Source: Longimicrobiales bacterium
GTDB taxonomy: Bacteria > Gemmatimonadota > Gemmatimonadetes > Longimicrobiales > Gaopeijiaceae
Reading direction: 5' to 3'
NCBI GenBank assembly: GCA_963664435.2
Contig: CAXXKM010000003.1
Span: forward strand, 1 to 64,000
Length of the DNA stretch: 64,000 nucleotides
In this document: piece after piece, positions 8,066 through 16,830 of the stretch
Layout: each line of letters begins with the position of its first letter
How positions within the stretch are numbered: position 1 is the first letter of the stretch
Notes under the pieces: model-generated
Database searches by the model: none
Seen by the model: only the letters and a program-made list of their open reading frames with translations
What the model was told of the DNA's origin: nothing
Position numbers and translations under genes: made by a program

Positions 8066-9181
8066 TCAGATCCGACCGCTACGGCGCAGCACCCTCAGGT
8101 GGGTGCGCACGTTGTCGTGCTCGAAGTAGGCGTCCTGCAGGTGGCGCCGTCCGTTCGAGCGCAGTGCGGTGCGACCATGCAGCACCCGGTGCCCGTCGCA
8201 CAGCAGGATCTGCCCGCCCTCCAACCGGAAGGTGACTTGGGAGCCGGGGGAGTTGACGCGCCGGGACAGCTCGTGGTAGGCGGCGTAGAAGTCGGCCAGG
8301 CGAGGCTCCGACAGGGGAAGGGTCTGCATCTGCGCGGTGTTGAACCGCACTAGACTTACCTCGCCATCGCGGTCCAGCCGGACCATGGGCTTGACCGCGT
8401 AGCACTCGAATTCGTCGCTGAAGATGCGGAACGGCACCGGCACCGCGCACAGCACGTCGAACTTGTCGGGGTGATCGCTGCGCAGTTCGTTGAGCAGGCC
8501 AAAGCCGTCCACGACCGTGGATTCGCCGCCTTCACACTCGTTCACCAGCATGTGCAGCGCCTGCACGTTCGGCGGCCAGGTGTAGCTGGTAAAGTCGTTG
8601 TGCGGCGCGACCGCCAGACCCGTGTGCGCGATGTTGTAGCCCTTCGGATCGACCTTGACGTTGTGGATGCGCTCGAACAGCACCTCGCGGATCGGGCCCA
8701 AACGGGTCGTGAGCTGTTCCGACGAATCCGGGTCGGTGGGGGCGTCAACGAGCACGCAGACCCCGCTTCGCAGAAACTCTTCGATCAACTCCGCTGCCAA
8801 GCGGTCGCTCGCCAGAAACCGCTGGTAGTCGAACCGCCGCGGCTGGAACCCGCCGTCCCAAGTGTGCCGTTCGAAGCGAGGCAGGCTCAGAAAGCCGTGG
8901 ATCTCGCTCGACCGATAGCGGGTGCGGTGCCCGTCAGGCCAGGCGATGCAGATCGCCTCGTCCTCGGATCCGGCGTGTTCGATGCTGACCTGCTTCGGCC
9001 TCAAGTCGCTGGTGACCCGGAAGAGGTGGAACCGCTTCTCCGTCGTCTGCACGACGCGGCACTCGCTGCAACCGCAGTTGTCGCGCATCCAGAGGTAGGG
9101 AAGATCGGTCTGCCCACCGTTGCTCCAAGTTGCCGACAAGGCATCGGAGTTCTGGGTGAGGCTGCTGATCGAGCGATGCAT
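8066..9181 (-). CDS. Fe(II)/2-oxoglutarate dioxygenase, gamma-butyrobetaine hydroxylase/TmpA-like (TauD/TfdA)
   Basis: N-terminal WMRDNCGCSEC Zn domain, plus PHND (HxD) and HRVLHGR motifs. Confidence 0.9.
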   Translation of the reverse strand: MHRSISSLTQNSDALSATWSNGGQTDLPYLWMRDNCGCSECRVVQTTEKRFHLFRVTSDLRPKQVSIEHAGSEDEAICIAWPDGHRTRYRSSEIHGFLSLPRFERHTWDGGFQPRRFDYQRFLASDRLAAELIEEFLRSGVCVLVDAPTDPDSSEQLTTRLGPIREVLFERIHNVKVDPKGYNIAHTGLAVAPHNDFTSYTWPPNVQALHMLVNECEGGESTVVDGFGLLNELRSDHPDKFDVLCAVPVPFRIFSDEFECYAVKPMVRLDRDGEVSLVRFNTAQMQTLPLSEPRLADFYAAYHELSRRVNSPGSQVTFRLEGGQILLCDGHRVLHGRTALRSNGRRHLQDAYFEHDNVRTHLRVLRRSGRI

Positions 9182-9476: not shown

Positions 9477-10073
9477 ATGGAAGACATGGGTCAGCCGAAC
9501 GGTCCGAAGGTGAGCTTCACCCGCATGGCGGACGGCACCCCCGAGGACTACGAGTTGCTGGCCCGCTTCGAGGACGAGTTCGCCGCGGGCACCGCCGACC
9601 GGGTGTTGGCGCACCTCCGTGAACTGTCCGGTTCGCTGGCCGGCTACCAGATAGACCGGCTGGAGCATTCTCTGCAGACGGCCACCCGCGCATATCGCGA
9701 CGGCGCGGAAGAGGAGATGGTGGTGGCGGCGCTCCTTCACGACATCGACGATCTCTTGGCCCCACACAGCCACGGGGAGTTGGCCGCGTTGCTGCTGCGT
9801 CCCTACGTGACCGAGCGAACCTGTTGGATCGTCCGGCACCATGGCCTGTTCCAGTACTACTACTACGCCCATCATGTGGGCGGGGACCGCGACGCCCGCG
9901 ACAAGTACCGCGATCATCCCTGGTATCAGGACGCCGTGGACTTCTGTCACCGCTGGGACCAGTGCGCGTTCGATCCCGACTACGATACGCTGCCGCTGAA
10001 GTTCTTCGAGCCGATGGTGCGCCGGATCTTCGCGCGCGAAGCGTTCCGCTTTGCGCCAAGGGGGCAATCGTGA
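9477..10073 (+). CDS. HD-domain metalloenzyme (PhnZ/TmpB/MIOX-like diiron family)
   Basis: RLEHSLQTATRA, ALLHDI, H...HH and WDQ pattern. Start at 9477 or 9486. Confidence 0.8.
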   Translation: MEDMGQPNGPKVSFTRMADGTPEDYELLARFEDEFAAGTADRVLAHLRELSGSLAGYQIDRLEHSLQTATRAYRDGAEEEMVVAALLHDIDDLLAPHSHGELAALLLRPYVTERTCWIVRHHGLFQYYYYAHHVGGDRDARDKYRDHPWYQDAVDFCHRWDQCAFDPDYDTLPLKFFEPMVRRIFAREAFRFAPRGQS

Positions 10074-10075
10074 TA

Positions 10076-10213
10076 CGGGATCCGGCGGCAGAGGAAACGG
10101 ATCACCCCCGAGAGGTGGTCGAGACGGCGCTGGCGCACGTGGTCCAAAACAAGGTGGAAGCCGCGTACCGTCGCACCGACCTGTTCGAGCGGAGGCGTCG
10201 GCTCATGGACGAC
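10076..10213 (+). pseudogene. C-terminal remnant of a P4-like integrase
   Basis: RDPAAEETDHPREVVETALAHVVQNKVEAAYRRTDLFERRRRLMDD is the typical P4-Int tail with LAH and the catalytic Y. Confidence 0.8.
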
Positions 10214-10432
10214 CTATCTGGAGGGCCGGAGACGGAGCACGGCGACCTGACACCCCCGCGACGAACTCAGAAGCCGTTTCCGGTCGGTTTGGGGGCATCT
10301 CGGAGAACCCACGGGCCGTGGCATCGCCTGAGAGTATCCATGTCAAGCGGAAGCCCGTTTTTCCCGAAGCAACCTGCCTCGCAACGCCCATTGCGACGCT
10401 TCCGCTTCGGTGCCCGTTCTTGTCCGGCTCGA

Positions 10433-11434
10433 TCATCCGTGAACGCTCCCCGCCGGGCTGGGCGTCGGGAAGGCCGGGCAGGAGTACTCGCGCGGCGGAT
10501 GTGCCGTCCAAGTGCGGTCCTGGTGCACCAGGGCGTTGGCGAGGACGAGGAGCTTCCGCATCACGGCCGTCAGGGCGACCTTCGGCGGCTTGCCCCGGGC
10601 CACGAGCGCCTCGTACTTGCGCTTGAGGTCGGGATTGTGCTGGACCGCGACCACCGCGGGCATGAAGAGCATTCTGCGGACCCGGTGCCTGCCGCCCTGG
10701 ATGAAGCTCCGTCCCTTCCAGTGTCCGGACTCCCGGGTGACCGGGGCGAGTCCGGCGAGGCTGGCGGCGCGCGACCGAGTGAGCCTACCCAGTTCCGGCA
10801 GGTGGACGATCAGTCCCGCGGCGGTGATGTCCGAGATGCCCGGGATCGAGGTCAGGATCTCGGCCCGGCGCTCCATTTCCTTCTCCTCCCCGATCCGCTG
10901 CCGGATCTCGGTATCGATGAGCTTCAGCTGGCGGTCGATCTGCCGCACCCTCTGCTTGGTGACCCGCTTGCCCACGGGAGTGCGCAAGTTCTTGCCCCGG
11001 TTGGTGGTTGCGGTGCGATCCCTGACCAGCGCGTCGCGGATCTGCTGGAGCTCGGCAAGGTCGCGCTGCCGCTCCGACCGCGCCTGGGTCGGGCGCAGGT
11101 CCTCGACAGCGGCCGCCATGGTGGCCAGCATCCGGGCGTCCACCGCGTCGGTCTTGGCGCGCCGCCCGATGGAGCGGGCGAAGGACCGGACTTGGAAGGG
11201 GTTGATCGCGTACAGGGGGAGCCCGGCTTTCCGGAGGGTGTCCTCGAAGTCGCGGTGGAAGGCTCCGGTGGGTTCGTAAGCGATCCGGTCGATCCCGGAG
11301 CCGATCCAGGCGATCAGCTTCTGGAAGCCGGCCCTGTCGTTCGGGAACCGGGACGCTCTCCCCTCGGGGGCAGCGAAGGCGTCGAGCCAGTCTTTGGAGA
11401 TGTCGATCCCGACGGTGCGGAGGATGCTGATCAT
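10433..11434 (-). CDS. IS110 family transposase/recombinase
   Basis: GIDISKD, YEPTG, AKTDAVDA (DEDD), SIPGIS and LAGLAP..RESG motifs. RBS GGAGAAGGGAAG. Confidence 0.95.
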   Translation of the reverse strand: MISILRTVGIDISKDWLDAFAAPEGRASRFPNDRAGFQKLIAWIGSGIDRIAYEPTGAFHRDFEDTLRKAGLPLYAINPFQVRSFARSIGRRAKTDAVDARMLATMAAAVEDLRPTQARSERQRDLAELQQIRDALVRDRTATTNRGKNLRTPVGKRVTKQRVRQIDRQLKLIDTEIRQRIGEEKEMERRAEILTSIPGISDITAAGLIVHLPELGRLTRSRAASLAGLAPVTRESGHWKGRSFIQGGRHRVRRMLFMPAVVAVQHNPDLKRKYEALVARGKPPKVALTAVMRKLLVLANALVHQDRTWTAHPPREYSCPAFPTPSPAGSVHG

Positions 11435-11444
11435 GTGTTCTTCC

Positions 11445-11672
11445 CTTCTCCTGTGCTTGTCGTGCGAGCCTCGATGCTCGTGTATCCATTCAGGACATTG
11501 GGAAGGACGGTGGCGACCACACTCCCGACGGCCCCTTACGGCCAGCCAGCCTATCGATCCGACCACCGTCCCTGTTGAGCGCCCGCTCCGGCTCGCTACG
11601 CTCGCCTCTGCGGGCGCTCAACAGCCCGGGCCTTCCCCGCGACCCGGTCATGCAAATCAAGCGGCAATCTGC
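11445..11672 (-). ncRNA. Putative IS110 bridge RNA
   Basis: Hairpins plus two internal-loop stems. The donor loop carries ATGGATAC (11482-11489) and GACAAG (11456-11461), matching the predicted circle junction ATGGATA-CT-TGTC. Transcript ends are approximate. Confidence 0.7.
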
Positions 11673-11786
11673 ATGATTATGAGAGACAAGCGACGATCTC
11701 GGGCCTCCGAGGGGTACGTAGGGCAGAACACGGCGGGCTGCAGAGAGTACCGCGACACCCACGCCGCTGCTGACACGGTCGGCACG

Positions 11787-12326
11787 TCATCCCCGGATGG
11801 CCGAGAGGCGGTTCAGATAGTGAGCAGCCCGTTCTTGGGAGAAGTAGTCGATAAACAGCGCGGCGGTTCCGAGGGCAATGGCGGTCAAGGCGGCCGCCCT
11901 GACCGCTGGCGATCGCGCGAACCCAAAGACTGCCAGCCCAACCATGACGAAAAGCGTGGCCGCTCCGAACGTGTACCCATACCATCCCGAAAACCCCCGG
12001 ACGCGCTCGATCTCGTGCTCCACGAACCCAGCCGGATCGTTCTCAAAGGCTTCGTTGAACGTCGACAACCGACGGTGATTGCTGACCGCCATTGCGCCCC
12101 CGACCGAAACGAAGAACACCGCAAGAGCGGACACGGGAAACACCAAGGAGCGCGGTGCCGGTGTGGCTCCGAACCTCCACAGCAAACCGACACAGGCAAG
12201 AAGAAGGATGCCGCCCACGGCAAGCGCCACCGCTTCGATGAGTTCGCCTTTCACCCAGGCGAGTGCGTGCTCAAGCACGGACGCGTCGTTCCCGGTCCCG
12301 GATTCGTCGATCGTCATTTGCTTCAC
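11787..12326 (-). CDS. Hypothetical 4-TM membrane protein
   Basis: 179-aa ORF with four hydrophobic segments. Confidence 0.65.
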   Translation of the reverse strand: MKQMTIDESGTGNDASVLEHALAWVKGELIEAVALAVGGILLLACVGLLWRFGATPAPRSLVFPVSALAVFFVSVGGAMAVSNHRRLSTFNEAFENDPAGFVEHEIERVRGFSGWYGYTFGAATLFVMVGLAVFGFARSPAVRAAALTAIALGTAALFIDYFSQERAAHYLNRLSAIRG

Positions 12327-12758: not shown

Positions 12759-14204
12759 GTGACGGACACAGAGTTGGCTCGGATCGAAGAGGCCCGTGCG
12801 GTCTTTCGGCGGCAGAAATCGCATAGCTCGCCGTCCTCCGCGCCGACGTACGGTGAGAGAATCGACCGTCTTGAGCGAGTCGAGACGCTGTGCAGGAGCC
12901 ACGTTGACGAGATCACCGAGGCGCTTCAGGCGGACTTCGGGTGCAGGAACCCGGACATGACGTTCATCGCCGACATCTTCCCCCAGCTCGATCACATAGG
13001 GTACGTGAAGCGGAAGTTGAGTAAGTGGATGAAGAGGGAGAGAGCTGGCTGGAGCCCGCTTTCTCTGACCGGACAGCGGACCTATGTGATCCACGAGCCG
13101 CTCGGCGTCGTGGGCATCATATCCCCGTTCAACGCGCCCCTTAGTCTGGCGCTCGTGCCCGCCGTCGAAGCGCTGGCTGCGGGCAACAGCGTGATGATCA
13201 AGATTTCGGAGAGTACGCCGCGCACCTCGGGACTGCTCGAGTCGCTCGTGGCGCGGTACTTCAGGGCAGAGGAAATGGCGGCGATCTCCGGCGGCGTCGA
13301 GATGTCGCGAGCGTTCGCGGCCCTTCCATGGGATCTTCTGTTCTTCACGGGCGGTTCCGAGGTCGGTCGGAAGATCCTCGCGGCCACAGCTGGGAATCTC
13401 ACGCCGACCGTCCTCGAACTCGGCGGCAAGTCTCCCTGCGTGCTCCTGGAGGATGCCGATGTCGGAGAGGCCGCGCGCAAGATCGGGCGGGTGCGCCAGA
13501 TGAACGCGGGCCAGGTGTGCATCGCCGGCGACTACGCGCTTCTTCCCGAACGGCACCTCGAGCCGTTCGTCGCCGCCGTCATCGAGGGCGACGCCGACGC
13601 GTACCCCTCTATCCTCGACAACCCGGAGTACACTTCCGTCATTCACGACGGTGCCTACGACAGGCTCGTCGCATACATCGACGAGGCCAGGGCCGCCGGT
13701 TGCAGGATCGTCGAGTCCAACCCGATGAACGAGGCGGTTCCGGATCGGGCCACGAGGAAGATTCCCCTCACGCTCGTCATCGATCCGGCGGACCATCTCA
13801 TGGTGTCCAGAGAAGAGATCTTCGGTCCGATCCTGCCGATCCACACGTACCGGAAGCTCGACGACGCGATCGCCCACATCAACCGTGGGGGCAAGCCGCT
13901 CGCGCTCTATGTCTTCGGCAGGAATCGGCGACGGATCGACAGGATCCTGCATTCGACATCGAGCGGTGGGGTCACGGTGAACGACCTGCTCCTTCACGCC
14001 GGTTCCCACACCATGGGGTTCGGGGGAGTGGGTCAGAGCGGCATGGGACGCTACAAGGGAGGGCACATCGGGTACAAGGCGTTCTCGAATCCCAAGTCCG
14101 TCTTCGAGCAGGGGATCATGAGGAGGTTCACCGGGATGTTTTTCGTTCCGTACGGGAGCGACCGGACGAGGAGAATCCTGCGAAACCGCGTCGGCGTGGG
14201 CTGA
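12759..14204 (+). CDS. Aldehyde dehydrogenase (coniferyl/fatty aldehyde DH-like)
   Basis: FTGGSEVG, LELGGKSP, NAGQVC, EEIFGP and KPLALY motifs. GAGGAG RBS before the GTG start. Confidence 0.92.
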   Translation: MTDTELARIEEARAVFRRQKSHSSPSSAPTYGERIDRLERVETLCRSHVDEITEALQADFGCRNPDMTFIADIFPQLDHIGYVKRKLSKWMKRERAGWSPLSLTGQRTYVIHEPLGVVGIISPFNAPLSLALVPAVEALAAGNSVMIKISESTPRTSGLLESLVARYFRAEEMAAISGGVEMSRAFAALPWDLLFFTGGSEVGRKILAATAGNLTPTVLELGGKSPCVLLEDADVGEAARKIGRVRQMNAGQVCIAGDYALLPERHLEPFVAAVIEGDADAYPSILDNPEYTSVIHDGAYDRLVAYIDEARAAGCRIVESNPMNEAVPDRATRKIPLTLVIDPADHLMVSREEIFGPILPIHTYRKLDDAIAHINRGGKPLALYVFGRNRRRIDRILHSTSSGGVTVNDLLLHAGSHTMGFGGVGQSGMGRYKGGHIGYKAFSNPKSVFEQGIMRRFTGMFFVPYGSDRTRRILRNRVGVG

Positions 14205-16568: not shown

Positions 16569-16830
16569 TGAGCCACTGTTCGATGGCTCAGCCAGCCTAC
16601 CCCGTGTAATACACCGGGGCTGGCGAGGGGTGGCCCTGCCCCCCTTCGATCCCCCCGAGAATCGCGCTCCCTTGGAGGTCGCGAATGAGGGCGCCGCCCC
16701 CTTTCCCCCGTGTCGGTGCGGCGTGATGCCTGAGCGCCGCGCCGCCCGTCGTCACCGCCCGCATATCGGCGGCCGAGTCCGCCACAGGGTTGTCGCCGAG
16801 GCGAAGGCGTACCCCGATGGCGTCTCTACC
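16569..16830. other. oriT-like motif (copy 3) followed by a frameshifted mobC remnant
   Basis: 16588-16712 aligns with the reverse complement of 44368-44488. Downstream VVTARISAAESA resembles VLVAVRLTPGESA of MobC. Confidence 0.65.

Follow-up and report, generated by a model that had tools for sequence, protein, structure and literature searches.

The IS110 element described in this work occupies a target site that agrees poorly with its own guide sequences and fully with those of a sibling variant of the same family, here called type S, and we consider it probable that an S bridge RNA chose the site, either in trans or by swap-out of a resident copy. The element lies in a window of 64,000 nucleotides (the whole stretch of DNA that was analysed) from a Longimicrobiales bacterium, and its features are collected in Table 1. 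Across the family, the covariation observed between guides and DNA, both at the donor and at the target, supports an IS621-type bridge-RNA architecture and its guide rules. The first-pass annotation of this sequence had proposed such an architecture in a new orthologue, and the covariation tests back that proposal.

Table 1. Features of the IS110 element, its target and related repeats. Positions are those of the window unless a contig (C1 to C3) is given.
Feature	Position	Strand	Remarks
Whole IS110 element, CT core to CT core	10333..11690	-	1358 bp; ends common to four other copies and relatives; empty paralogous sites
IS110 recombinase gene	10433..11434	-	Intact, 333 aa; PF01548 and PF02371
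Right end	10333..10346	-	-35 TTGACA 10346-10341; left donor ATGGATA 10341-10335; CT core 10334-10333
Left core and right donor	11685..11690	-	CT 11690-11689; TGTC 11688-11685; TGTC in 68/80 and TGTT in 12/80 insertions, guide tracks the change
-10 candidates of the predicted junction promoter	11673..11681	-	CATAAT 11681-11676 (15 nt from TTGACA) or AATCAT (18 nt); promoter haplotypes in 71 full insertions
Short conserved hairpin near the predicted RNA 5' end	11626..11647	-	7 pairs, 100% paired, no double changes; weak support
Perfect 15-bp hairpin	11572..11624	-	8/15 pairs change on both sides; probably the 5' stem-loop
Target-binding loop	11505..11571	-	Left guide AGGCTGG + CT 11552-11544; right guide CGGGAG 11527-11522 (reads CT-CCCG)
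Donor-binding loop	11449..11495	-	Left guide ATGGATAC 11489-11482; right guide GACAAG 11461-11456; handshake CA 11455-11454
Left target half ATCGTCG	11691..11697	-	3/7 to own guide, 7/7 to sibling S guide
Right target half CTCA	10329..10332	-	2/4 to own guide, 4/4 to sibling S guide
Remnant, C-terminus of a P4-type tyrosine integrase	10076..10210	+	Target repeat ~120 bp downstream
Empty type-2 repeats	C1:728951, C1:1455553, C2:839638, C3:404893, C3:429599, C3:574794, C3:1159512

The element in the window has neither terminal inverted repeats nor a target duplication. Its protein combines a DEDD RuvC domain with a Tnp domain, and the catalytic residues D11, E54, D96, D99 and S236 were placed by alignment to IS621 (8WT6, E 1.5e-33) and ISCro4; together with the CT ends and the scarless insertion, these are features of IS621-type elements. 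On the minus strand, all the sequence statements of the first-pass annotation hold, namely the two ends, the CT core, the donor ATGGATA-CT-TGTC, the stems of the left end and the donor guides. The other copies for which it had called share the ends as well: the same genome has four further full copies, 88% identical and with identical ends, in addition to fragments, and among the relatives and copies taken together ATGGATA-CT is present in 69 of the 71 full insertions. Records of relatives name Longimicrobiales and Candidatus Palauibacter, and many of the runs containing the stretch are sponge metagenomes.

An empty paralogous site (C1:720511-720804) has equal length if one CT is kept, with no duplication, and a public contig (X16 record 17) bridges an empty site, joining 10332 directly to 11689 with one CT; since each of them keeps a single CT, the ends of the element are right and its insertion is scarless. 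The contig stems from a paralogous site, as it shows 11 differences in 60 letters. The same insertion is also found in genome G011, and contigs of two runs from different studies (X1, which may be the source sample, and X6) span its junctions, so that an assembly artefact is ruled out. A core at the second CT, which would give a promoter spacing of 17 nt, was rejected, since every copy has its end at the first CT, the only register that agrees with the empty site. IS1111-group elements of the IS110 family have sub-terminal inverted repeats and a guide RNA in the right end; this assignment was also rejected, given that the guides lie in the left (long) end and that no sub-terminal inverted repeats were seen by inspection. 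The neighbours of the element are ordinary, with a gamma-butyrobetaine hydroxylase-like dioxygenase at 8066-9181 (-), an HD-domain protein at 9480-10073 (+) and an aldehyde dehydrogenase at 12759-14204 (+); the frame at 11787-12326 (-) has no Pfam match. Elsewhere in the genome, identical IS fragments with identical flanks lie in opposite orientation at C3:1134928-1135144 and C3:1789034-1789250, either as a large inverted duplication or as an assembly artefact.

The folding and covariance check suggested in the first-pass annotation came out in favour of a structured left-end RNA. The left end, which extends over 257 nt to the start codon, folds with a z-score of -5.67, with none of 200 shuffles as stable, and the order of the predicted RNA is short 5' hairpins, the 15-bp hairpin, the target loop and the donor loop. 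The donor-loop stems TCCTG/CAGGA (11495-11449) and CGAGC/GCTCG enclose both donor guides, and the target loop has its handshake bases TG at 11521-11520, its guide register having been fixed by the co-resident copies and by relatives whose guides match their own sites. In 44 distinct left ends, which are kin and not independent, 99% of 2420 cells are paired, against 36-44% in slid controls, and both bases have changed in 10 of 55 pairs, a level that none of 500 shuffles reached. This set comprises 43 of 46 left ends plus L032, one genome-only copy, one end with a 9-nt duplication and one truncated end being omitted, and the first hairpin (11677-11648) was excluded from the pair count as it is not kept in type-2 ends. 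Eight of the double-changing pairs belong to the 15-bp hairpin and two to the stem of the target loop. The stems of the donor loop, being nearly invariant, add no covariation. The bases ATCG, previously read as a partial match to the flanking target, lie in the target-loop stem, where the column pair 140/182 varies as UA, UG and CG, and that match does not stand. A search of Rfam gave no match at E up to 1.

For the comparison of guides with DNA, 90 left ends were found and 80 distinct insertions were kept after dropping 10 duplicates; three loci with an unparsable target loop were excluded. The right donor guide follows the donor in 76 of the 79 readable insertions, as expected from a true guide in the first-pass reading, with 67 TGTC and 9 TGTT cases concordant and 3 discordant. 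The left target guide agrees with the left flank at 6.11 of 7 positions on average, compared with 4.63 after shuffling and a maximum of 5.20 in 5000 shuffles (n=79), although these shuffles overstate significance because the elements are kin. A handshake pairing at position 7 is described for IS621 (PMC11208158). Here, position 7 of the target is G in 79/79 insertions, facing the C of the donor-loop handshake, and position 7 of the donor is A, facing T, in 80/80; since the handshake bases are invariant, they are consistent with such pairing rather than covarying.

The family varies its target loop and keeps one donor, on which 27 target-guide pairs were seen, and therefore its variants aim at three intergenic repeats. 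Type 1 guides (ending in GCTGG) correspond to a palindromic repeat, type 2 guides (ending in GGTCG) to a long inverted repeat, and the type S guide (ATCGTCG) to a repeat that lies on the downstream side of P4-type integrases. The type of an element's guide corresponds to its kind of site in 75 of 79 insertions (49 of type 1, 24 of type 2 and 2 of type S); the four exceptions are the window copy, two type-1 sites that a later insertion has split and one element whose guide and site are of a kind of their own. In type 1 the left half is strict, positions 3-7 matching at 90-100% in 41 sites, and the commonest left guide (20/45) is the one carried by the window copy. The right guide of this type agrees at 2.42 of 4 positions versus 1.58 when shuffled, with 13 different guides and 9/45 perfect matches, and that of type 2 is tighter (3.38/4, n=21).

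The window copy, a type-1 element, departs from these rules. Its guides specify AGGCTGG-CT-CCCG and its site reads ATCGTCG-CT-CTCA, so that only 5 of 11 positions agree, and 22% of all CT sites fit its guides as well as the occupied site does. Among the 27 guide pairs, only S fits the site fully (11/11), the next best reaching 8 or 7. The window copy is the only one of 52 type-1 elements at an S-type site. Five of the 48 type-1 elements with both flanks, the window copy included, score 5/11 or less, and the other four lie at type-1 sites damaged later, through nesting of another element, the loss of one base or short tandem repeats. A perfect fit to any of the 27 guide pairs occurs at 29 of the 457,697 CT sites of the genome, a figure that makes the case look stronger than it is, given that the site belongs to a multi-copy repeat also used by another IS110-family element, L072. 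The S elements L040 and L041 are inserted in the same repeat as the window copy, and the right halves L037-L039 overlap their left halves at 100% over 114 bp.

In all 13 segments the window copy is 93-100% like the type-1 element L044, which is its closest match in nearly every one of them; compared with S, its two ends are 77% and 85% identical and no S residue is present at either of them. Targets of its own type stand empty in the genome, with 17 type-1 repeats, two of which are in the window. A search for the S guide gave two metagenome contigs, no match in 19 genomes of the genus and, in 401 genomes of the order, a single match with one mismatch, which looks unrelated; this genome and G011 are among those without a match. 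Among type-1 variants, a test for action in trans, weak overall, gave a mean best match to a co-resident guide of 1.89 vs 1.73 (p 0.16) and 2/27 perfect matches vs 0.27 expected (p 0.02). Half-match insertion through a donor half was considered and rejected as neither half fits the site, the halves agreeing, by inspection, at 3/7 and 0/4 positions.

By analogy with IS621, the element would circularise at its CT core, with the junction building a promoter, and the left-end RNA would grip the donor junction with one loop and the target with the other, the recombinase tetramer acting with two RNA loops from two RNA molecules. Since all variants share the donor, an S RNA could take the circle of the window element to an S site. 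It is quite possible, and we tentatively favour this route, that the S RNA carried the type-1 circle into the S target in trans. The other route, which we find doubtful, is that the site was first opened by an S copy, which was afterwards exchanged through recombination at the donor ends common to both: the window element would have been inserted at the junction of the S copy through a donor half-match or a donor-donor reaction, and S would then have been lost. This proposed guide-lending case is one event, and its sequence does not separate action in trans from swap-out. The bridge RNA of IS621 works in trans (PMC11208160), and the two loops used are supplied by separate RNA molecules (PMC11208158); ISPpu10 also uses donors in trans (10.64898/2026.03.19.712850); donor half-match and donor-donor insertion reactions have been described (10.64898/2026.08.31.748434; 10.1101/2025.05.14.653916); and elements without an RNA region have been noted, for which trans action was suggested (10.64898/2026.08.14.744561).

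The first-pass annotation had seen in the poor target match a possible relaxed or off-target insertion. The family is indeed relaxed on the right half (2.4/4 in type 1), but the site is perfect for sibling guides instead of being a loose match to the element's own. As a rival explanation, the own bridge RNA would have inserted the element off-target into a structured hot-spot repeat, the sibling fit being coincidental because siblings evolved toward the same hot spots. Besides the looseness of the type-1 right half, it can draw on the position of S sites at ~200 bp from type-1 repeats, on the specificity that target stem-loops add for ISPpu10 (10.64898/2026.03.19.712850) and on IS621 off-target insertions that fit no guide half (10.64898/2026.08.31.748434). 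However, the left half is matched with high fidelity in type-1 sites, every other type-1 element with a similarly low score is at a site damaged later, and more than a fifth of all CT sites would have served the own guides equally well; we regard an off-target event as unlikely.

Lending of a bridge RNA in trans by a co-resident type-2 copy (D, or A-C) has the attraction that these copies share both the genome and the donor, and the guides of D fit the site at 7/11, with the four core-proximal left bases correct. It is nevertheless very unlikely: none of 24 type-2 elements is at an S site, their left matches are 6-7/7 but for one 5, and type-2 targets stand empty in the genome. Finally, an S element might have been inserted and its guide region then overwritten by gene conversion from type 1, or its guides or flanks might have drifted. 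The family includes mosaics (L036, L039), so recombination between variants, or misassembly, does occur; yet no S-like segment exists in the window copy, its first 30 and last 98 nt included, its left guide is the commonest of type 1 and both flanks match intact empty sites, which leaves this history highly improbable. Selection of the site by a sibling S bridge RNA thus remains our preferred reading.

The 15-bp hairpin had been taken for an extra part upstream of the loops. It is real, as 8 of its 15 pairs compensate, but its extra status probably does not hold: judging from its position and its relatives, it is probably the usual sequence-variable 5' stem-loop, because it lies directly 5' of the target loop like the stem-loop of IS621 and because distant relatives have something else at its position, namely a short hairpin in L093, L095 and L096 and an unrelated hairpin in L035. 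In IS621, the structure of the 5' stem-loop is conserved and its sequence is diverse (PMC11208158). The tip of the hairpin reads GC-GNA-GC (11601-11595) within tandem G-A loops, a motif that 41 of 46 left ends carry with T, G or C for N. The same sequence, with N likewise free, is described as a DNA mini-hairpin of unusual stability, and motifs of this sort occur where single-stranded DNA is primed and at promoters (PMC13037366); here, the sequence caps a long stem within a predicted RNA, and relatives manage without the tip. The exact 23-nt tip motif occurs in six contigs of a viral collection: three are phage contigs and three, of ~3.8 kb, come from circular viruses with single-stranded DNA, a torque teno virus ORF1 domain being encoded on one of them. 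Separately, the left end of L044, the closest relative, has a 9-nt duplication inside the hairpin tip.

According to a recent copy-out model, IS621 may exit as a single-stranded circle (10.64898/2026.08.31.748434), a proposal contrasted with PMC13626964. It could be imagined that the family forms a guide-sharing pool, with a single donor and many target loops that are lent in trans, and that the GNA-capped hairpin also serves the excised single-stranded circle as a signal at the DNA level, as a priming or protein-free site for second-strand synthesis by the host. We consider this decidedly unlikely, since distant relatives lack the hairpin or carry a replacement and GNA hairpins are common in the repeats of this genome.

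The promoter predicted at the circle junction was compared in the 71 full insertions. In 36 of them TTG(C/T)GA stands 17 nt from CATAAT, and in 22 TTGACA stands 17 nt from CATT(C/T)T; a further 12 combine TTGACA with AATCAT or CATCAT at 18 nt, and one fits none of these groups. Thus, 58/71 relatives hold the 17-nt spacing through compensating changes of the ends, and the fact that the two large groups keep 17 despite a 2-nt difference at each end speaks for a junction promoter. The window copy belongs to the 18-nt group of 12, of which only two also have CATAAT at 15 nt. The spacing of 15 nt first proposed for the -35 and -10 elements is arithmetically real, but it is probably the wrong working register, considering that the relatives use 17 or 18 nt. 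No end-to-end circle joint was found among the 15 of 19 joints listed from contigs of four public runs. In 401 genomes, the lone junction-like match that could have indicated a circle or tandem copies turned out to be a right end lying in a type-1 target whose first bases resemble the right donor. Two RNA runs hold contigs across related elements, although such contigs cannot show transcription.

The integrase remnant beside the target repeat has no Pfam match on its own, and the paralogous locus C1:720511-720804 carries the full integrase of 407 aa. The S-type repeat gave 62 matches in 16 of the 19 genus genomes; among 37 distinct instances, four are empty and are exactly the window target, and the core of most others reads AT. 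Empty S-repeat sites with a CT core are enriched for the exact S target, and they may be scars of earlier insertions. The type-1 repeats have a GTAG-like start, nested palindromes and GC-GNA-GC hairpins, and often lie ~200 bp from an S repeat and the end of a P4-type integrase; the two empty ones in the window, among the 17 in the genome, are at 16590 (-) and 44486 (+). The seven empty type-2 long inverted repeats (14 strand matches) have conserved arms and are folded in between. We take the target repeats to resemble REPs, a label that refers to their shape, since the REP-associated HUH transposase PF01797 had no match in this genome.

Tandem CTTG or CTTGCTGG units are present at the target sites of 5/80 insertions (junctions L055, L056, L058, L061 and L092), and extra bases like them at other sites (L063, L138, L141), none of them in this genome; the tandem units look like footprints of repeated imprecise excision and re-insertion. 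In G011:C2 (L148:1854-3261), the insertion shared with the window is interrupted inside its left target guide (window 11547) by a 1408-bp IS110-family element, presumably of IS1111 type, which encodes a 340-aa protein and has sub-terminal inverted repeats. As this nested element sits in the guide and its right end carries GTAGGCTG, a type-1 target sequence, guide DNA can draw in a competing RNA-guided element as a decoy. Ends similar to those of the nested element abut the type-1 insertions L048 and L149. L039:1238-2596 is of type 1 in its left half and the flank on that side and of type S in its right half and the adjoining flank, through recombination of neighbouring variants or misassembly. 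The more distant L093, L095 and L096, from Vicinamibacteria records and with 78-79% protein identity, retain the donor loop together with guides of type 2; no right end turned up for them within ~260 bp of the match, and they may carry extra DNA.

With 80 insertions and 27 guide pairs on one donor, the family represents a natural experiment on the reprogramming of the target loop, in which the left half is strict, the right half is loose and changes fast, and the promoter ends change together. If the sibling S RNA did choose the window site, this would be a natural case of an IS110 element steered by the guide RNA of a sibling, and an element's own guide would not always tell its target site. 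It would also mean cross-reaction between co-resident systems with a common donor once they are employed as editors. Three guide types, three targets and one donor provide a ready-made test set.

As for known systems, the mechanism is known and the element is one more bridge recombinase. With IS621 (Durrant 2024, PMC11208160; Hiraizumi 2024, PMC11208158; PDB 8WT6) it shares the DEDD and Ser recombinase, the CT core, the long left end with a 5' stem-loop and target and donor loops, the 7+4 guides and the handshake bases, as well as the junction promoter, predicted here, and insertion into intergenic palindromic repeats. It differs from IS621 in its distant protein (E 1.5e-33), in its donor and targets, and in a longer left end with more 5' hairpins; moreover, 27 natural target-guide pairs occur here on one donor and one copy is in the target of a sibling. 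A donor with the same 13-nt core and other flanks is already in the Durrant supplement (donor_seq5461), and the donor-loop stem of the family was not found in the part of that supplement that was searched. In literature that mostly did not include subscription papers, we came across neither a case of natural cross-targeting among sibling variants nor one of IS110 in Palauibacter. ISCro4/IS622 (10.1101/2025.05.14.653916; PDB 9T56) has the same architecture and a distant protein (E 2.2e-32), and the donor-donor recombination shown for it (10.1101/2025.05.14.653916) would make a swap-out possible. ISPpu9 and ISPpu10 of Pseudomonas putida (PMC12288879; 10.64898/2026.03.19.712850) are IS110 elements that likewise target palindromic repeats; the two share one target repeat, and trans activity on split donors has been shown for them. 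In the accessible text of those two reports, trans action concerns non-autonomous or engineered donors, and not, as proposed here, an autonomous sibling placed by the guide of another variant.
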